Below are positions 9,110 through 42,151 of a stretch of 64,000 bases of DNA, one piece after another. The DNA comes from an uncultured bacterium (GTDB lineage: Bacteria > Patescibacteriota > Minisyncoccia > Phycocordibacterales > DATDWN01). Location: NCBI GenBank assembly GCA_903861205.1, contig CAIOTC010000016.1:10243-74242 (forward strand), written 5' to 3'. Numbering within the stretch: position 1 is the first letter of the stretch; each line of letters opens with the position of its first letter. The notes beneath the pieces are model-generated. The model made no database searches. It saw only the letters and a program-made list of their open reading frames with translations, and was not told where the DNA came from. Made by a program: the position numbers and the translations under genes.

Positions 9110-10813
9110 TTACAAAAACAACCTCACCAACCGAATTTTAAGATATGTAGATTTTTTCTTGTGTTTGGCCAGATAATTATAAATAGGTGCCAAAGTTTCG
9201 GTTTTGACTGTTTCAAATGCCTCGACAATATCGTCAAACTCACCGCGACGCAATTCCCTTTTGAGATAATCAACATCGGGGCACTGTTTTTTCTCTCTCA
9301 ATTTTTCAATGTGCGAAATAATGGTTTCCGGCGTGACCACTCGCCTGTCGGCAATTTCCGAAAGTGGCAGTTCTTGTTCCAAAAGTTCCTTGGTAAGCAT
9401 TTCCGTCGACTTTTTTGTTTTTTTCTCCAGCAATTTCACTTTCTTTTTTTCATCCGGCTCAATTTTACTCATAAATTCTCTCTGCTTTCCCAAAATTTCC
9501 TCGCCGGACATTAGAGTTAAATCGTTTTCCGCGTCCTCCGACAATTCTCTGAAATATTTGTCCTTTTCCAAAACTTCCGGATCAACACGCAGAGCCATTT
9601 CGTTGAAACCAATGAGCTTCATGCCGGCAAGCGATCGGACACGCGACAAGGCGACATATCCCATTCCAGCCACGAACGATTTCGACAAATCCACTTCCAT
9701 GGCATCAAGCGACATCCCCTGGCTTTTGTGCACGGTGATAGCCCAAGCCAAGCGAAGTGGAAACTGGGTAATTTCGGCTTTTGTTTTTCCATCCTCCTCG
9801 ATTTGCCATGACGTCGGCGAAACACTGATGAGCTCGCGACTGACCAGACGCACCTCAGGTTCGCCGTACTGATTGAAACGTTCCACCACGCCGAGCGTGC
9901 CGTTGACGTATTTTCCCTCCTGATGATTTTTGGTAAACATGACTTTGGCGCCGACTTTCAGCGACAAAACTTCCGGTGACAAACAATTTTTCTTCATCGT
10001 CTCCACCAAATGCCGCGAACCTGTCCAGATCATCTCGAAATCTTTTTGCTCGGCGGAAATGAGCGAGAGATATTTGTTGTTGATGATGTCCACATCAATA
10101 TTGTGTGTGAAAAGTTTTGTCGGCCCGGCTGCGACGAGACTCTCACCTGGTGTCCACGGCGTAGCAACGTTACACCCTGGTGTGAGTCCGGTCGCCTTTC
10201 TTTCCAACAGCTCACGAGTTTTATTACTAACTCTATTTTCCCTAATCTCATTTAAAATTTGCAAATATGCTTTGTCTTTTTGGCGGAACTGCTCGGAAAT
10301 ATAACAAACGGTAAAACCGGAATCCTGCCAGCTGTCCGCCTTGAAGGCAAACTGCGATTCTAAAATTTCTCCGCGTGTTACCGGTGGCAGTTGAAAAAAA
10401 TCTCCGCAGAGAACGATTTGCATTCCACCAAAAGGTTTTTCATTTCGTTTGAATTGCCGGCAAATCCAGTCGATCATATCGAGACGAAAATGGTGGAGCA
10501 TGGAAACTTCGTCGATAACCAAAACTTTAGCATTTTCAAAACGTTTGTAGAGATAGGCCTTTTGCATCATGTCGTCGATGTCGCGGTCGGTCAAAGTGTC
10601 GCGCACGCCAAGCCCCGACCACGAGTGAATGGTTTGCCCGCCGATATGAGTGGCCGCAATGCCCGTCGAGGCCGTAACCGCCACCGAAACCGCGTGCGAT
10701 TTGAGGTAGTCGATGTACTCGCGAAGCACATACGTTTTTCCGCTCCCCGCCGCGCCAGTCAAAAAAACATTCTTACCCATCTTCAAAATATCCAGCGCTT
10801 CTTTTTGTAACAT
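9110..10813 (-). CDS. PIF1-family ATP-dependent DNA helicase with C-terminal HTH-like extension
   Basis: Walker A FLTGAAGSGKT, VLVIDEVSML, CGDFFQLPPV, TVHKSQG. The C-terminal ~110 aa are basic and helical. Confidence 0.8.
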   Translation of the reverse strand: MLQKEALDILKMGKNVFLTGAAGSGKTYVLREYIDYLKSHAVSVAVTASTGIAATHIGGQTIHSWSGLGVRDTLTDRDIDDMMQKAYLYKRFENAKVLVIDEVSMLHHFRLDMIDWICRQFKRNEKPFGGMQIVLCGDFFQLPPVTRGEILESQFAFKADSWQDSGFTVCYISEQFRQKDKAYLQILNEIRENRVSNKTRELLERKATGLTPGCNVATPWTPGESLVAAGPTKLFTHNIDVDIINNKYLSLISAEQKDFEMIWTGSRHLVETMKKNCLSPEVLSLKVGAKVMFTKNHQEGKYVNGTLGVVERFNQYGEPEVRLVSRELISVSPTSWQIEEDGKTKAEITQFPLRLAWAITVHKSQGMSLDAMEVDLSKSFVAGMGYVALSRVRSLAGMKLIGFNEMALRVDPEVLEKDKYFRELSEDAENDLTLMSGEEILGKQREFMSKIEPDEKKKVKLLEKKTKKSTEMLTKELLEQELPLSEIADRRVVTPETIISHIEKLREKKQCPDVDYLKRELRRGEFDDIVEAFETVKTETLAPIYNYLAKHKKKSTYLKIRLVRLFL

Positions 10814-10865
10814 GCAAACATTGTATCAACCTTAAGTTCTCAAGTCTATTAAATTTAAATATTAT

Positions 10866-10895
10866 CAATCTACGCTATAGCTGAGATTGAGGAAT
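10866..10895. repeat. Left copy of direct repeat caatctacgctatagc..gattgaggaat flanking the Cas2-like ORF
   Basis: caatctacgctatagctgagattgaggaat. The right copy at 11306-11377 contains a perfect 22-bp palindrome. Confidence 0.6.
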
Positions 10896-11283
10896 TGTAA
10901 GATTTTGCTAATTTGAATGTTTTGAGTTTGTCTCCAATTTTTATTTCTTTCAAATATTCTAAAAAATCCTTAGGCAAAGGAGATGGTCCAACCCAGACAC
11001 TTTTCTGTATCATCACATATCCGAATCTTATCAGGTGTCGCCTAAACCAATCCCGTTCTTTCTTTTGATTTTCAGGAATATCATACATCAAAATTAAATT
11101 TTTCGGAGAACTTTTCTGAAATGGAGAATTGAAAGATGAATTATAATACGCTAGCTGTTTTTTAGTGATTGGAAAATTATTAGATGATTTTGATATTTGT
11201 TGATTCTGAGATTTATGTGATTTTTTCGAAACAGGAATTCCAAAAGCATTTACTCTTATTCCTTTGTAATAATAATTACTCAT
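10870..11283 (-). CDS. Cas2-like (VapD/Cas2 fold) small protein with low-complexity N-terminal extension; no CRISPR array nearby
   Basis: The C-terminal half NLILMYDIPENQKKERDWFRRHLIRFGYVMIQKSVWV...LKTFKLAKS matches the Cas2 pattern (beta1 YD[IV], KR..L.k.L..yG.R.Q.SVf, terminal l.fYRL). This is pattern recognition only. Confidence 0.35.
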   Translation of the reverse strand: MSNYYYKGIRVNAFGIPVSKKSHKSQNQQISKSSNNFPITKKQLAYYNSSFNSPFQKSSPKNLILMYDIPENQKKERDWFRRHLIRFGYVMIQKSVWVGPSPLPKDFLEYLKEIKIGDKLKTFKLAKSYNSSISAIA

Positions 11284-11305
11284 GTCTAAATTATACTACA
11301 TATTA

Positions 11306-11377
11306 CAATCTACGCTATAGCGTAGATTTGTATAAAAAAATGTTCTTCATTGGGTACCTCGATGAAGATTGAGGAAT
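11306..11377. repeat. Right copy of the direct repeat; contains the perfect palindrome aatctacgctatagcgtagatt (11307-11328)
   Basis: caatctacgctatagcgtagatt...gattgaggaat. It shares both ends with 10866-10895 but has about 40 extra bp between them. Confidence 0.6.
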
Positions 11378-11378
11378 A

Positions 11379-12122
11379 CTACGCTTGAATTCTTTTGAAA
11401 AACTCCGCGCCGATGTAGAGGCAAACGAAAGCGATAACAAAAAGAATAAGTGCATCAAGACCAAAAGAGAAAACATGTTGGCCGATGAGCGCTCCGCGAA
11501 TGCCGTCAACGGCATAGGACAAGGGATTGGCGTGCACTATTATATTAAACACCGTCGGCAATCCAACAATCGGAAAAAGCGCGCCGGAGAGAAAGAACAG
11601 TGGCATGACCAAAAAGTTGATGATGAGCGGAAAACTTTGCATGTCGTCGAGCTTGCTGGCAATCATTGTGCCGAACGCGGTGAAAAACAACGCCAGTAAA
11701 AACATGAAAACAATGGCCAGCGGAACTCCGGAAAGCGCCGGTTTAAATCCGGCCAAAAGCGTGATGAGCAAAACGATAATACCTTGAATAAAGGCCACCG
11801 TTGTCCCGCCTAGCGTTCGGCCGAGCATAATATTGAAACGCGACACCGGCGCAACAAGAGTTTCTTTCAAAAATCCGAATTGCTTGTCCCAAATAATTTC
11901 AATGCCGGAAAAAACGGCCGTGAACATGACAGTCATGGCAATAATACCCGGCGCTAAAAATTGGATGTAGCTTCCTTCGCCCGCTTTGGCAAAAGTGGAG
12001 CCAAATCCAAAACCGAAAGCAAAAAGAAAAAGCAGTGGTTGAGCCAGCGAGGCAAACATACGCTGTTTGCTTCTAACATATCTTTTCAATTGTCGTAACC
12101 ACAAAATGTAAATAGTAGACAT
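11379..12122 (-). CDS. ABC-2 type transporter permease
   Basis: Six predicted TM helices. The best start is ATG at 12122 (MSTIYILWLRQLKRY). The GTG-extended ORF to 12218 reads through the upstream repeat (FPRRRESRYLKLDSRLRGNDK) and is rejected. Confidence 0.7.
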   Translation of the reverse strand: MSTIYILWLRQLKRYVRSKQRMFASLAQPLLFLFAFGFGFGSTFAKAGEGSYIQFLAPGIIAMTVMFTAVFSGIEIIWDKQFGFLKETLVAPVSRFNIMLGRTLGGTTVAFIQGIIVLLITLLAGFKPALSGVPLAIVFMFLLALFFTAFGTMIASKLDDMQSFPLIINFLVMPLFFLSGALFPIVGLPTVFNIIVHANPLSYAVDGIRGALIGQHVFSFGLDALILFVIAFVCLYIGAEFFKRIQA

Positions 12123-12134
12123 TTTATTGTATTT

Positions 12135-12198
12135 GTCATTCCCGCGAAGGCGGGAATCTAATTTTAAATATCTGGATTCCCGCCTTCGCGGGAATGAC
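12135..12198. repeat. Composite REP-like palindrome: gtcattcccgcgaaggcgggaatc plus its inverted copy gattcccgccttcgcgggaatgac
   Basis: Each unit is itself a hairpin (ATTCCCGC / GCGGGAAT). The same family is at 54118-54207 and 56129-56190. Confidence 0.8.
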
Positions 12199-12205
12199 AG
12201 AAACA

Positions 12206-12994
12206 CTACCTGCCCCACATTCTATTTGTTAATCTTTTCGCATCCATACCCGTGCTTTCTTCGCGAATATGCTTCCCCGTCAATTCCAAAAAGGCATCTT
12301 CCAACGTGGCTGATTTGGTACTTTCTTTCAATTCTGCCGGCGTGCCAGAAGCCACGATGACACCCTGATCGATGATCGCCACTCTGTCGGCATTTTTGTC
12401 CGCCTCCTCCATGTAATGCGTGGTGAAAAAAACAGTCAGGCCTTCTTTTTGGTTGAGATTTTTTATATAACTCCACATGTGATTGCGCGTTTGAGGATCG
12501 AGACCAAGTGTCGGCTCGTCGAGAAACAGCACTTTCGGATGATGCAAAAGTCCGCGGGCAATTTCCAAACGACGCTTCATTCCGCCGGAAAAATCTTTGA
12601 CCAAACTGTCCTTCCTATCCCACAAATCGACAAGTTCGAGCAACTCCTGTATGCGCGGTTTGTAAACAGATTTCGGCACGGCGTACATGACAGCGTGCAG
12701 TTCCATGTTTTCGTATGCAGTCATTTCGGTATCGACGGACGGATCCTGAAAGACAATTCCGAACGAATGTCTAGCCTCGTCCGGATATTTGATGACATCA
12801 AAACCATTGAGCACGACAGACCCAGATGTAGGCTCGAGAAGCGTGGTCAACATTTTTATGCTCGTTGTTTTGCCGGCGCCATTGGGTCCCAGAAAAGCAA
12901 AATTCTCGCCTTGTTTGACGGAAAAAGTGATGTTGTTGACGGCTGTAAAATCTCCAAACTTTTTGGTGGCATCCTTGACTTCTATGATATTCAT
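12206..12994 (-). CDS. ABC transporter ATP-binding protein
   Basis: Walker A GPNGAGKTT, signature LSGGMKRRLEIA, Walker B LFLDEPTLGLD. It is the partner of the downstream permease. Confidence 0.9.
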   Translation of the reverse strand: MNIIEVKDATKKFGDFTAVNNITFSVKQGENFAFLGPNGAGKTTSIKMLTTLLEPTSGSVVLNGFDVIKYPDEARHSFGIVFQDPSVDTEMTAYENMELHAVMYAVPKSVYKPRIQELLELVDLWDRKDSLVKDFSGGMKRRLEIARGLLHHPKVLFLDEPTLGLDPQTRNHMWSYIKNLNQKEGLTVFFTTHYMEEADKNADRVAIIDQGVIVASGTPAELKESTKSATLEDAFLELTGKHIREESTGMDAKRLTNRMWGR

Positions 12995-15893: not shown

Positions 15894-17168
15894 TCACATC
15901 ACAATTTTTTTCAAAGCTTTGACCAATACGTCAATGTCTTTTTTTGTCGTCGTTCGGCCGAGCGTGACGCGCAAACTGGAGGCGCTACAATTTTTGCGAC
16001 CAAGTTCGGAGATGACGTACGACGAAGAATTTTCTTTGCTCGTTTGACACGACGACGAATATGAAGTAGCGATGCCCTCCACATCCAAAGCGACGACGAT
16101 GTACTCACTGTCTGGCGCAGGCATATCAGCCATGGCTGAAAAACAAATATTGATGTTGTTTGGCAATCTGTCAGTCTGCGAGCCGTTCAGTTTGGCGTTC
16201 GGGAAAGCCTGGCAAATTTTTTCGATTCCGTAATCACGGATTTTTTGTAGTCGAGCCGATTCCGACTGGCGCAAATTTTCTGCCAGCTCTAGCGCTTTGG
16301 CCATGCCAACCATTCCCTCGACATTTTCCGTACCGCTGCGCAATCCGCCTTGCTGTCCACCGCCAAACATGATCGATTTTATTTTCACGCCCGTTCGCAC
16401 GTACAAAATTCCCACACCTCGCGGACCATGCATTTTGATACCATCGAGTGTCATCAAATCCACGCCAAGTTTTGCAACATCCAGCGGACAATACAAACCG
16501 GCTTGGCAGGCGTCAACATGAAAAATTGGAAATTTTTCATCAATTTTCAATTTACAATTTTTAATTTTTAATGAATTTTTTAATTTCTCAATTTTCCAAT
16601 TTTTAATTGCTTTTCCGATTTCTTTGATTGGCTGGATTGTGCCGATTTCGTTGTTGGCGTACATGACCGAAACCAAAACTGTGTTTTCTTTGATCGCAGC
16701 CAAAATATCTTTCGGCGAAACAAGTCCATCCTCCGAAACTCCAACGTAAGTTACTTCCCCACCGCGTCGTTCAATTTCCTTGCAAACTTCCAAAATAGCC
16801 GGATGCTCGATTCTGGTAGTAACAATGTGCGGAATGAATTTAGCACCCGAGGTCTGGCCTTGGGAAATTGGGCACCAAAGGCCAGACCTCTGGATCTCCT
16901 CAAACACACCCAAAAGCGCCAAGTTGTCCGACTCGGTTCCTCCGGAAGTGAAAATAATTTCGTTGGCTCGCGTGCCCAAAACCCTGGCGATTTTTTCTCG
17001 CGACTCCTTCATCACTTCCTTCGCCTTCATCCCCTCGCCATACAACGCTGACGGATTGGCAAAATTTTTCGCAGAATATTTCGCCATCGCCCCACTCACC
17101 TCTTTGGCCACAGGTGTAATCGACACATAATCCAAAAATATTCTTTTTTTGTTTTTTCGAGAAATCAT
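15894..17168 (-). CDS. iscS: Cysteine desulfurase (IscS/NifS family) with two in-frame repeat-derived insertions
   Basis: TSGGTESDN, HVDACQAG, HKMHGPRGVGILYV, GGGQQGGLRSGTENV. Best start is ATG at 17168 (MISRKNKKRIFLDY); the track extends from a TTG at 17291. Insert 1 (QRSGLWCPISQGQTSGA) is encoded by the 16849-16886 hairpin repeat. Insert 2 (NWKIEKLKNSLKIKNCKLKIDEK) is encoded by AT-rich repeat 16521-16616. Confidence 0.85.
   Translation of the reverse strand: MISRKNKKRIFLDYVSITPVAKEVSGAMAKYSAKNFANPSALYGEGMKAKEVMKESREKIARVLGTRANEIIFTSGGTESDNLALLGVFEEIQRSGLWCPISQGQTSGAKFIPHIVTTRIEHPAILEVCKEIERRGGEVTYVGVSEDGLVSPKDILAAIKENTVLVSVMYANNEIGTIQPIKEIGKAIKNWKIEKLKNSLKIKNCKLKIDEKFPIFHVDACQAGLYCPLDVAKLGVDLMTLDGIKMHGPRGVGILYVRTGVKIKSIMFGGGQQGGLRSGTENVEGMVGMAKALELAENLRQSESARLQKIRDYGIEKICQAFPNAKLNGSQTDRLPNNINICFSAMADMPAPDSEYIVVALDVEGIATSYSSSCQTSKENSSSYVISELGRKNCSASSLRVTLGRTTTKKDIDVLVKALKKIVM
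16849..16886. repeat. Hairpin repeat ggtctggccttgggaaattgggcaccaaaggccagacc (copy 2), in-frame inside iscS
   Basis: Differs from copy 1 only at cattaaagg versus caccaaagg. Those two changes remove the TAA that terminates the MGMT gene in copy 1. Confidence 0.8.
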
Positions 17169-17199
17169 TATGTCAATAGAATAACATGAAAAATGAGAC

Positions 17200-17228
17200 T
17201 TGACAAAAAATTGGTGGTGGGTAATATA
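17200..17228 (+). promoter_or_regulatory. Sigma70-type promoter for ORF 17245 (TTGACA, 17-nt spacer, AATATA), with GGAGG RBS at 17235-17239
   Basis: cTTGACAaaaaattggtggtgggtAATATAaaaatcGGAGGtaaatATG. Confidence 0.6.
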
Positions 17229-17244
17229 AAAATCGGAGGTAAAT

Positions 17245-17541
17245 ATGTCGACAAAAAACGTTCCATTGATAATGACGGACGAAATTGCCAAGGCACTTTA
17301 CAACGAACTTTCCATGTTTGGTCGTGTTCAAGTAACCGATGAGTTGGCATTTGTAGCTGCGAGATGGCAGAAAAACCGAATTATTCAAGAGCTAAAGGTT
17401 TTTTTAGCTCACCACCAAAAAAACTTGGATGAGTTGAATAGAAACCCAAGACCTCAGCTCGCGACAACAACGACCTATATAAAAGGAATTACTGAAGGAA
17501 AAATTGAAACGTTAAAATCTTTGATCGCTATCTTGGAATAA
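17245..17541 (+). CDS. Hypothetical protein (98 aa)
   Basis: Clean ORF with a consensus promoter and RBS and a downstream terminator. No motif recognised. Confidence 0.5.
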   Translation: MSTKNVPLIMTDEIAKALYNELSMFGRVQVTDELAFVAARWQKNRIIQELKVFLAHHQKNLDELNRNPRPQLATTTTYIKGITEGKIETLKSLIAILE

Positions 17542-40849: not shown

Positions 40850-42151
40850 ATGGCAACAACACCGCCAAGTCTTCCGCCGCCCAACACTCCAGTTGTGGCT
40901 ATTAGTTATGCTGCTGGAATTTCCGCGACAGCGTTGGTAACCAACTTGGTCTTCCTCGCTTTATCGGCGTCGATGATCTTCACAGGAGTATTTCTTGGAC
41001 AACATAAGTCCATCTCAACTCTTGTCACGATTAACGTGTTCTCGCTAGGTATTACGCTTTTGCTTTTGCAAGCAATACATCTCGGATTGAGTTTGCAGAT
41101 AGTACTGGAAAATCGTTCTGCCATGCTGCTCCGATTCGGAGCATACGCCGGAAACGTAAAACCTGGTCTGGTATATGTTATGTGGCCGCTCTATCAACTG
41201 ATTTCGGTTACAAAAAACATGATCGAGTTCGATATTCCGGATTCGCCAGAAAAAATATTTCACGGTGATCTCACCGAAGACACCAGTGACGGTGTTGTGC
41301 CAAAAGGCTACACACCGGCATTAAGAATTACATTTGCACCTCCGCAACCACTTGAAAAGGACAAGGATGGCTACGAGGTGACTATCAAGGATCCAATCAA
41401 GGGCGGTCAGGAGACAAAATCACTGATCATTCCCAAAGATGATGCCTATTACAAACGAAACACGACGGAAATTGAAGCCTCAGTCGGTTTTTGTGTGACA
41501 AACCTGCGAACTTTCTACGAAAAAATTGGGAGTGTAGACAACGCCAGCCGCAGCATGAACGATCATGCTGTCTCCGGTCTGAACAGTCGACTTCCAAAAT
41601 TCACATTAGCCGAAGCTTTGCTCCGACTCGACGAATTTGCCTTCGGTATGATAGAGGATCTGACTCAGTACTCCAACGATTGGGGTATCTGCGTGGTTTT
41701 CTTCCGCTTCAAACACCCCGGCGTTAGCCACACCTTAAACGCTGCTGTGTCCGGTGTCGCTGTTGCGGGCGAAAACCTGAAGACAACAAGGCTCGCGGCC
41801 GAAGGAATAAAAACAACGTTGACACAAACCGGTCTTGGCAAAGCAAATGCTGAGTTCGATCTCCTGTCAGCTAGAGGTCATGCATTAAAAGAAATGGCCG
41901 ATGTCGCGGCTACTCCCGGTGGCGCGCTCGCAATGACCGTCAACGCAACGCAGGAAGCATTAGTTGCGGCAAAAACCGTGATCGTTCCGACTGATAACAT
42001 CATGGGAATGATTGCCGGAGCATCAGGAATGCTCAAAAATATTCCGGATATACCAACCGCAAATCAGGATCAAACTCCTCCGAAAAAAGAGCAGGAGTAT
42101 GGAGCTGACGTGAAGAAATACGGTGGCAAGAAAGGAAAGGATAAGAAATGA
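40850..42151 (+). CDS. SPFH/Band-7 domain membrane protein
   Basis: N-terminal TM helices, then LRFGAYAGNVKPGLVYVMWPLYQLISVTKNMIEFDIP, the SPFH beta-region pattern. Lys-rich C-terminal tail. Confidence 0.55.
   Translation: MATTPPSLPPPNTPVVAISYAAGISATALVTNLVFLALSASMIFTGVFLGQHKSISTLVTINVFSLGITLLLLQAIHLGLSLQIVLENRSAMLLRFGAYAGNVKPGLVYVMWPLYQLISVTKNMIEFDIPDSPEKIFHGDLTEDTSDGVVPKGYTPALRITFAPPQPLEKDKDGYEVTIKDPIKGGQETKSLIIPKDDAYYKRNTTEIEASVGFCVTNLRTFYEKIGSVDNASRSMNDHAVSGLNSRLPKFTLAEALLRLDEFAFGMIEDLTQYSNDWGICVVFFRFKHPGVSHTLNAAVSGVAVAGENLKTTRLAAEGIKTTLTQTGLGKANAEFDLLSARGHALKEMADVAATPGGALAMTVNATQEALVAAKTVIVPTDNIMGMIAGASGMLKNIPDIPTANQDQTPPKKEQEYGADVKKYGGKKGKDKK

Follow-up and report, generated by a model that had tools for sequence, protein, structure and literature searches.

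Why should a Cas2-like gene lie between copies of a palindromic repeat where there is no CRISPR array? The question is raised by a small gene in a 64-kb stretch of DNA from an uncultured member of the Patescibacteria (contig CAIOTC010000016.1), the whole of which was analysed and is referred to here as the window; we named the encoded protein CAS2L and the palindrome PAL. The original prediction, made from the window alone, had offered a relic of a lost CRISPR locus, a toxin-like Cas2/VapD homologue on a small mobile cassette, or a false resemblance. Our own proposal is that CAS2L may be the dedicated partner of the 24-30-bp PAL and be autoregulated through it, as a REP/RAYT-like protein-site pair, a proposal that we regard as evenly poised. 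What we do regard as established is the fold and family of the protein, the universal bracketing of its gene, the promoter geometry, and the dispersal and insertion character of PAL.

A small gene with a PaaX-type Cas2 fold

The predicted open reading frame (ORF) was found on the minus strand and encodes 137 aa. As the gene reads from right to left, the perfect PAL lies upstream of its start, and the imperfect PAL lies over its last codons and stop. The features of the unit are as follows.

10870..11283, minus strand: CAS2L gene, 137 aa, ATG start, TAG stop at 10870-10872
11306..11329, minus strand: upstream PAL, putative operator, reading AAATCTACGCTATAGCGTAGATTG on the gene strand; positions 11307-11328 form a perfect 22-nt palindrome
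10866..10889, minus strand: downstream PAL, asymmetric 'CA...GT' form, CAATCTCAGCTATAGCGTAGATTG on the gene strand, covering the last five codons (ISAIA) and the TAG
11366..11377, no strand assigned: second, exact copy of the 12-mer AGATTGAGGAAT, whose first copy is at 10884-10895

Profile searches with CAS2L gave PaaX_M (PF20803, 'PaaX central Cas2-like domain') at 55.5 bits and E=6.4e-15 over residues 64-126, far above the Pfam score for CRISPR_Cas2 (28.4 bits, cutoff 23.8, E=1.9e-6). The NCBIfam model TIGR01573 (cas2) also exceeded its cutoff (32.5 bits vs 24.5), and the Cas2 models of PADLOC scored around 2e-8. No Pfam match to helix-turn-helix (HTH) domains, PaaX_C or Y1_Tnp was found in CAS2L, TIGR02277 stayed below threshold (21 bits vs a cutoff of 264), and the HUH motif is absent from the family alignment. 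The AlphaFold model (mean pLDDT 76.5; input alignment of 60 sequences) has an N-terminal beta-hairpin at residues 4-11, a disordered basic linker at 21-39 and a b-a-b-b-a-b arrangement over 61-124, hairpin and linker being all that precedes the Cas2-like domain. The top matches of this model in the PDB, as found by Foldseek, were Cas2 (5zyf, 6qxt, 5xvn), PaaX from Escherichia coli (8a39) and VapD (3ui3), with probabilities of 0.95-1.0 but modest E-values of around 0.01.

In a profile alignment the family sequence LIVMYDIP...QKSVW coincides with the strand-1 Asp and the Q-SV motif of Cas2. D68, within LIxMYDIP, is invariant in the 60 sequences and aligned to the Asp of Cas2 6jhz; E76, R77, W79, R81, R82, Q93, S95 and W97 are likewise invariant, as are Y6, K7, G8, G15, P17 and F51 in the N-terminal part. 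The protein is thus laid out as a conserved N-terminal beta-hairpin (YYKGxRVNAFGxPV), a variable basic linker (approximately residues 21-45) and a PaaX-type Cas2-like domain at 61-126. The N-terminal 60 aa had been described as low complexity, which holds only for the linker: residues 1-20 (YYKGxRVNAFGLPV) and 47-61 are conserved blocks. We have next to no doubt that CAS2L is a real gene with a PaaX-type Cas2 fold. The predicted resemblance to Cas2/VapD was thus borne out by the profiles, the model and the Foldseek matches to Cas2, PaaX and VapD, and the option of a false resemblance is contradicted by profile search and structure prediction alike. A 16-nt tandem repeat (2.4 copies) lies at window positions 11185-11224, within the part of the gene that encodes the variable basic linker, and may account for the length of 137 aa here, as opposed to 125-130 aa in most relatives.

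Two palindromes at the window locus

The perfect 22-nt palindrome (AATCTACGCTATAGCGTAGATT) predicted for the right-hand repeat was recovered at 11307-11328. Allowing up to 3 mismatches, it has only two sites in the 64 kb, and 100 shuffles gave 0 matches. The two sites agree at 21 of 23 positions of CAATCTACGCTATAGC.GAGATT (10866-10888 against 11306-11328). Folded as single-stranded DNA, the upstream PAL reaches -8.8 kcal/mol (z = -5.1) and the downstream PAL -4.6 kcal/mol, a value that 5 of 200 shuffles match.

The claim that a longer repeat flanks the gene on both sides needed amending. The palindromic cores and the exact 12-mers are indeed on both sides, but the left-hand copy overlaps the last codons and the stop of the gene, and the right-hand copy is split, since its 12-mer sits 37 nt past the palindrome, immediately after the stop codon of an ABC-2 permease gene. 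The 12-mer at 11366-11377 and the PAL at 11306-11329 together make a 30-nt direct repeat of the 3' end of the gene with an interruption of about 37-43 nt, which we read as the scar of a duplication or recombination at PAL. An intrinsic terminator at the 3' PAL was ruled out, as no T-run or terminator-like site was found there. Likewise, a known RNA family does not provide an explanation, as no Rfam match was found in the locus or in a recurrent PAL context that later turned out to be a reverse-transcriptase gene.

Palindromes bracket the gene throughout the family

Bracketing was examined in 81 loci from Paceibacteria metagenome-assembled genomes (MAGs), picked by protein similarity only, over which a position weight matrix (PWM) built from PAL sites was run. 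Exactly two PWM-positive PALs bracket the gene in 69 of these loci, seven have three or four, and five have fewer than two; the same matrix gave 0 matches on 294 kb of shuffled DNA. Among the five, the contig ends downstream of the gene in L035, and variant palindromes occur at both ends in the others, namely, CTCCACCATGGTGGAG twice in L078, AGTTCGCCATGGCGAACT in L071 and L079, and ATTCGTGCGCGATAGCGCACGAAT in L075, where it is lengthened downstream to a 50-nt palindrome. PALs of the same locus agree at 12.4 of 16 variable positions, compared with 10.7 between loci (64 loci; 0 of 5000 permutations), a similarity that partly reflects the relatedness of loci, although the rare variants point the same way. 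The two flanking palindromes are very probably cognate to the CAS2L gene.

Conservation of PAL is at the level of DNA, as the same DNA is in or out of the coding frame depending on the locus: in some it encodes the tail ISAMA* or ISAIA*, elsewhere it follows the stop codon or lies behind an earlier stop. The tail was therefore rejected as a peptide motif, the same DNA being found past the stop in other loci and in other frames elsewhere. The upstream consensus is ACATATACGCCATGGCGTATATGT, with perfect 24-mers in 25 of 63 upstream sites, and the downstream consensus is ACATATCAGCCATGGCGTAAATGT. The centre of PAL is CATG in 73 sites, TATA in 27, TATC/GATA in 22 and a mixed TATG/CATA in 6, that is, 100 symmetric centres (CATG or TATA) against 6 mixed Y/R forms. 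The centre pair thus co-varies even though a hairpin loop needs no such symmetry, which accords with a symmetric dimer recognising duplex DNA. Past the 24-mer, pairing of the arms extends over at least 3 further bases in 52% of sites, compared with 12.6% in re-paired controls, and the outer arm sequences themselves vary (TAC/GTA, CCC/GGG, ATCC/GGAT), with co-varying arms of up to 50 nt. Read on the gene strand, asymmetric PALs have the form 'CA...GT' in 46 cases and the mirror form 'AC...TG' in 5, the inverted orientation occurring in a few loci (L052, L053). PAL-to-PAL distances of 382-478 nt track gene length, and helical phasing of the pairs was discarded, since these distances gave no signal beyond gene length.

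Palindromic sites also accompany longer relatives. One of them, the 188-aa PaaX_M protein of L154 (E=1e-19), has ACATCAATATTCAGCTATAGCGTATAATTGATGT upstream of its gene and ACATCAATATCAAGCTATAGCGTAAAGTTGATGT downstream; in L091 and L113 longer PaaX_M genes, encoding a winged helix-turn-helix (wHTH), have a PAL after the stop codon; and in L055 a 160-aa PaaX_M relative (864-1346), with TATACT 7 nt before its ATG, lies between copies of an unrelated palindrome (CAGACGGCCGTCTG / TTTCAGACGGCCGTCTGAAA). The 10-mer GCCGTCTGAA of the latter is the DNA uptake sequence of Neisseria, probably a coincidence. Palindromes beside these winged-helix PaaX_M relatives tie the family to palindromic DNA sites and, judging from the four loci, bracketing by a cognate palindrome is apparently a trait of a wider group of small PaaX_M proteins in Patescibacteria.

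The upstream palindrome overlies a predicted leaderless promoter

In 56 of 65 loci, 22-24 nt separate the end of the upstream PAL from the ATG (22 nt in the window), and 61 of 67 loci have a match to TATAAT at five or more of six positions, located 5-9 nt upstream of the ATG, compared with 5% at random positions; a Shine-Dalgarno-like motif was seen in only two of the 67. In the window the order reads PAL-taatatgtag-TATAAT-ttagac-ATG, with the following box.

11290..11295, minus strand: TATAAT -10 box, 6 nt before the ATG, with no Shine-Dalgarno sequence and hence a predicted leaderless mRNA

The palindrome thus lies over the -35 region of the gene's own promoter in essentially all loci, and a consensus promoter scan misses the CAS2L promoter because there is no -35 match. 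Overlap with the -35 region is the classical place for an autoregulatory operator and, on this geometry, the upstream PAL is probably the operator of a leaderless promoter.

Solitary palindromes recur at gene ends and inside genes

Scanning metagenome contigs with the exact 20-mer ATATCAGCYATRGCGTAAAT returned at least 120 stretches. Among the 123 matches listed, 38 adjoin a family gene at its 3' end, 11 are elsewhere beside one, and 74 are in stretches without a family gene, the listed gene-free stretches measuring 1-15 kb. These solo PALs occupy recurrent places. Most lie past the stop codon of a co-oriented gene (25 of 31), some are 5-13 nt before a downstream ATG, and others are associated with tandem 580-aa paralogues, located 2-8 nt beyond their stop codons. 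In these arrays (L179, L181 and about 12 further metagenome loci) the paralogues have 555-590 aa, carry CxxC motifs at either end and match no Pfam family; a PAL lies 2-8 nt past each stop, and the next gene begins 5-7 nt after the PAL.

A further group lies within genes. Among the matches listed, PAL is found inside a reverse-transcriptase gene in 16 loci (L082-L183), in both orientations, as well as inside genes for an M24 peptidase (6 loci), RNase HI (4), MiaA (3), UvrC and TruB. The reverse transcriptases are RVT_1 proteins of 316-394 aa, in which PAL is in frame in the loop before LGNLTSQ (as HIYAMADIC or THISHGVNV), a motif that we take to be typical of diversity-generating retroelements. 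Intragenic PALs always read as ..ISHGVN.. or, when inverted, as ..IYAMADI.., apparently because stops occur in the remaining frames checked. In the reverse transcriptase of L184 an unrelated, perfect 34-nt palindrome (GTGACACAAATTCTGCAC|GTGCAGAATTTGTGTCAC) is in frame beside a degenerate PAL; there seems to be more than one family of coding palindromic insertions in these genomes. A comparison of PAL conservation inside genes with that of the flanks was discarded, since the loci had been chosen by the exact 20-mer. The recurrence of these contexts cannot be due to chance.

The window itself holds one such insertion.

16121..16144, minus strand: third, degenerate PAL, GTTTTTCAGCCATGGCTGATATGC on the gene strand, within the cysteine desulfurase gene at 15894-17291 (minus strand)

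This site scores 16 bits with the PWM, while shuffles yield 0.4 matches of at least 8 bits per window. It is in frame, and the protein gains SAMADM behind NINICF. Among the 120 orthologues nearest by protein similarity (55-68% identity), about 115 have no insert and read NINICF-PG-LDAEF, extra residues at that codon being limited to the window protein and four others. For three of these four the DNA was retrieved, and each has a different short stem-loop, namely, TCAGCC-acatc-GGCTGA, TGCGCC-tcgtc-GGCGCA and CCTGCCT-acgc-AGGCAGG. This comparison indicates that PAL is a genuine insertion, that the codon is a hot spot, and that copies decay. Short palindromes in frame in essential genes, here RNase HI, UvrC, MiaA, cysteine desulfurase and the reverse transcriptase of the diversity-generating type, are rare.

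One exact match of the 20-mer occurs in a genuine CRISPR array. The array of the 9.2-kb metagenome contig L182 has at least 64 repeats (GTCGCTCCCCCCACGGGGAGCGTGGATTGAAAT; GC-rich and not Patescibacteria-like), and one of its spacers contains the exact 20-mer (gcccgcagctGCATATCAGCCATGGCGTAAATCA); this spacer may have been taken by another organism from PAL-bearing DNA, or may be a chance match of a 20-mer in a very large database.

Family, neighbours and mobility

The family is large. A large protein database contains 2,334 relatives, the best of which share 55-69% identity across 92-100% of the length, have 120-140 aa and come from MAGs of Paceibacteria, Nomurabacteria and Zambryskibacteria; clustering at 50% left 17 representatives below 1e-30 and 1,773 below 1e-3. 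Distant relatives include proteins of 160-225 aa in which a longer N-terminus precedes the same domain, some of them matching a winged helix weakly. Among the species-representative genomes scanned, 324 stretches encode family members, with two or three copies on separate contigs in several MAGs. Copies within one MAG are usually 62-73% identical, whereas the identity of each to a counterpart in another MAG is 80-88%, as expected of old, vertically inherited paralogues. No relatives were found among viral contigs (IMG/VR), phage records (INPHARED) or plasmids (PLSDB), which ruled out a phage or plasmid origin. A weak tblastn match at 41204-41422, inside a 433-aa ORF (40850-42151), was dismissed as a chance resemblance and not a second Cas2-like gene of the window.

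Many members carry the NCBI label 'CRISPR-associated endonuclease Cas2', which results from the TIGR01573 score exceeding its cutoff in PGAP, and the JGI label 'DNA-binding transcriptional regulator PaaX'; neither label has the backing of context or of domain architecture. Automatic pipelines have in this way named thousands of Patescibacteria proteins Cas2 without a CRISPR context, and surveys of CRISPR systems in these bacteria should leave them out.

Clustering of the neighbours of the 81 loci gave no universal partner gene, and 72 distinct neighbour pairs were counted among 82 genes, part of the identifications being motif reading by eye. Some positions recur: rpsG (S7) and fusA (EF-G) enclose the gene in about 19 loci, folD and a PAP2 phosphatase/secDF enclose it in about 11, and in about nine it follows smc. 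Other copies adjoin thrS, argS and a PIF1 helicase, dnaE or topA, with RNase III also among the neighbours. The gene has the same orientation as its upstream neighbour in 65 of 80 cases. No cas genes or arrays adjoin the family gene, and the 81 loci contain no recurrent cluster of cas-like neighbours; near family genes there is also neither a conserved small partner ORF that could encode an antitoxin nor any paa gene. The neighbours in the window, both outside the unit, are the following.

9110..10813, minus strand: PIF1-like helicase gene, downstream neighbour, with its own promoter-like TACAAT 6 nt before the ATG
11379..12218, minus strand: ABC-2 permease gene, upstream neighbour

A -10-like box precedes the ATG by 6 nt both at the helicase gene (window 10820-10848, minus strand) and at the family gene (11290-11295), in neither case with a Shine-Dalgarno sequence; leaderless starts may be widespread in the source genome. 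Accessory genes seem to have a hot spot in the rpsG-fusA spacer. In L125 the gap (150-1480) has no family gene and contains a solo PAL together with what looks, from the sequences, like a HicB/HicA pair; it also contains a minus-strand ORF of 105 aa that starts at the central ATG of the PAL.

Signs of movement are found in a few loci. The MAG MFWB01 has two copies, L045 and L060, whose proteins are 95% identical and whose DNA is homologous (93%) over 444 nt, from the promoter just inside the upstream PAL to about 10 nt past the downstream PAL, with unrelated flanks. Proteins of the subtype found between rpsG and fusA (B-type) also occur in other contexts (L045, L051, L061). In six of the 81 loci an extra PAL bounds an extra single gene, encoding an S51 peptidase, a HAD hydrolase, an AAA_18 kinase or, in three cases, a protein without assigned function, and a comparison of L003 with L010 suggests that a gene together with its PAL was inserted precisely at a PAL.

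Weighing the explanations

According to the proposal of a REP/RAYT-like pair, CAS2L would be a dimer-type protein of PaaX/Cas2 fold with the two flanking PALs as its cognate sites. Occupancy of the PAL at the -35 region of its own leaderless promoter would switch the gene off, and the downstream PAL would mark the 3' edge of the unit; solo PALs are found elsewhere in these genomes, where they sit beside stop codons, border variable accessory genes or form in-frame insertions of 18-27 nt in housekeeping genes. The locus would then be the 'master' locus of a REP/RAYT-like system in which a Cas2-fold protein replaces the HUH transposase. The components of this proposal differ in strength. That CAS2L itself binds PAL is slightly favoured, and that it cuts or spreads PAL is doubtful. 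The full version, a Cas2-fold enzyme that recognises, cuts and spreads miniature palindromes as a non-HUH analogue of REPIN-RAYT in Patescibacteria, is likewise a tentative suggestion that we would not expect to hold.

Several observations weigh against the proposal. Judged by their identities, most copies are paralogues of long standing that were inherited vertically and lie in stable contexts, and the L045/L060 pair could equally reflect transposition of a bracketed unit or gene conversion. Accessory genes also occur in sister loci without the extra PAL and are only sometimes bounded by it, which weakened the idea of an integron-like cassette array. Solo PALs have a density of approximately 1 per 60-90 kb of the DNA at hand, unlike classical REPs, and those in the GC-rich contigs L102 and L111 may be chance matches of an exact 20-mer in a very large database. 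The flanking PALs, when asymmetric, have the same polarity, whereas the repeats of REPtrons are inverted; this fixed polarity and the co-varying outer arms speak more for a hairpin specific to one strand than for a symmetric site in duplex DNA. Finally, the CAS2L family lacks the winged helix with which its PaaX-type relatives would bind DNA, and another protein could bind PAL.

The main rival, unlikely in our estimate, is a plain PaaX-like repressor, that is, CAS2L would be solely a transcription factor, an autoregulated mini-PaaX with PAL as its operator, the other PALs being its small regulon or roadblocks and their dispersal having some other cause. Its nearest relatives are indeed PaaX-type, some of them with weak wHTH matches; the fixed spacing of the PAL at the -35 region and the dyad symmetry of its centre are those of an operator, as would be the solo PALs located 5-13 nt before an ATG. 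This rival does not readily account for a family without HTH, for solo PALs that keep no fixed spacing to downstream starts and are in many cases intragenic, or for a downstream PAL at the end of each gene, arms co-varying to 50 nt and insertion polymorphism, none of which resembles an operator. Improbable, but suited by the 46 to 5 gene-strand polarity of the asymmetric PAL, is that PAL acts as an RNA hairpin, with CAS2L as a Cas2/VapD-like endoribonuclease or RNA binder that processes or stabilises transcripts, including the 3' end of its own mRNA and read-through. RNase activity has been reported for Cas2 and VapD proteins, the outer arms co-vary, 25 of the 31 solo PALs lie past a co-oriented stop, and the inserts at the same codon of other desulfurase orthologues are stem-loops with 5-nt loops. 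Yet the upstream PAL precedes the predicted transcription start, PAL is symmetric through its centre, and the common asymmetric form folds poorly (-4.6 kcal/mol, with a 2x2 internal loop and an A-A mismatch); moreover, G-U pairing rescues the mismatches on neither strand, and there is no Rfam match.

The two functional readings of the original prediction fared worse. The toxin reading, with CAS2L as the VapD-like product of a selfish addiction gene on a small mobile cassette whose bounding sites serve a host recombinase, could draw on VapD among the Foldseek matches, on multiple copies per genome, and on variable hot spots, including the HicAB-like pair in the rpsG-fusA gap of L125; what survives of it is that the palindrome-bounded unit behaves like one that duplicates as a whole. 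The lack of a conserved adjacent antitoxin gene, the high sequence conservation and mostly old, vertically inherited paralogues, and the absence from viral, phage and plasmid collections make it very improbable. A decayed CRISPR-Cas locus, with an orphan cas2 and two degenerate repeats, accords with a Cas2 profile above the NCBIfam cutoff and with palindromic flanking repeats, and we confirmed that the 64 kb contain no repeat-spacer array (Tandem Repeats Finder) and no cas1. It is effectively refuted, with a negligible residual probability, by the missing array, by the lack of cas neighbours, and by an identical architecture of gene plus palindromes in 81 loci between housekeeping genes; besides, the 'spacer' between the repeats is the gene itself, and PaaX_M far outscores Cas2. 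We are highly confident that the CAS2L family is no part of CRISPR. Nor is PAL a common repeat unrelated to the gene, the possibility that had been named as speaking against the original reading: it is dispersed, but it brackets every family member, with arms that co-vary locus by locus.

Comparison with known systems

No published description of the CAS2L family or of PAL elements was found in the literature. The closest analogy is provided by REP/REPIN sequences and their RAYTs (REPtrons), in which a vertically inherited single gene is flanked by a palindromic repeat thought to be mobilised by its product (PMC3116915, PMC3337134, PMC3733652). The CAS2L locus shares with them a small single gene between copies of a short palindrome that is dispersed elsewhere, a repeat that tracks the gene, and mostly vertical inheritance at stable positions. 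It differs in that CAS2L has a Cas2/PaaX_M fold with neither HUH motif nor Y1 transposase domain, in that copies of PAL are few where REPs number tens to hundreds, and in that PAL is symmetric through its centre and has copies in frame within genes.

The in-frame copies are closer to the Rickettsia palindromic elements (RPE), palindromic insertions that are likewise tolerated in frame in housekeeping proteins and that are, to our knowledge, the sole well-known parallel to short in-frame palindromes in essential genes. PAL, however, measures 18-30 nt, compared with 100-150 nt for RPE, and has a dedicated, always-linked protein gene. In a few loci the palindrome bounds single accessory genes, as in L003 compared with L010, in the manner of integron attC and Acinetobacter pdif sites, with the differences that no recombinase, of the tyrosine type or other, is linked to the family loci and that most neighbouring accessory genes have no extra site.

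As for the protein, PaaX-family repressors consist of a wHTH, a Cas2-like middle domain and a C-terminal domain, in about 300 aa. CAS2L resembles them in having PaaX_M as its best profile match and a palindrome over its own promoter, as would an autoregulated repressor; it differs from them in its 137 aa, without winged helix or PaaX_C and without nearby paa genes, and in the second site at the 3' end of each gene of the family. With Cas2 and VapD it shares the ferredoxin-like fold, the 'YDI' strand with its metal-binding Asp, and the Q-SVW motif, but it has no cas1, array or antitoxin, and it has an extra conserved N-terminal segment. In the Cas1-Cas2 complex, Cas2 dimers bind a DNA duplex of approximately 23 bp. 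A conserved 137-aa protein and a 24-bp site form a pair that is easily tested in vitro, in organisms whose regulatory and mobile-DNA biology is barely known. If it is true that CAS2L acts on PAL, palindromic repeats would have a specific partner of Cas2 fold outside CRISPR, and such a pairing could resemble the ancestor of the association between Cas2 and repeats in CRISPR.

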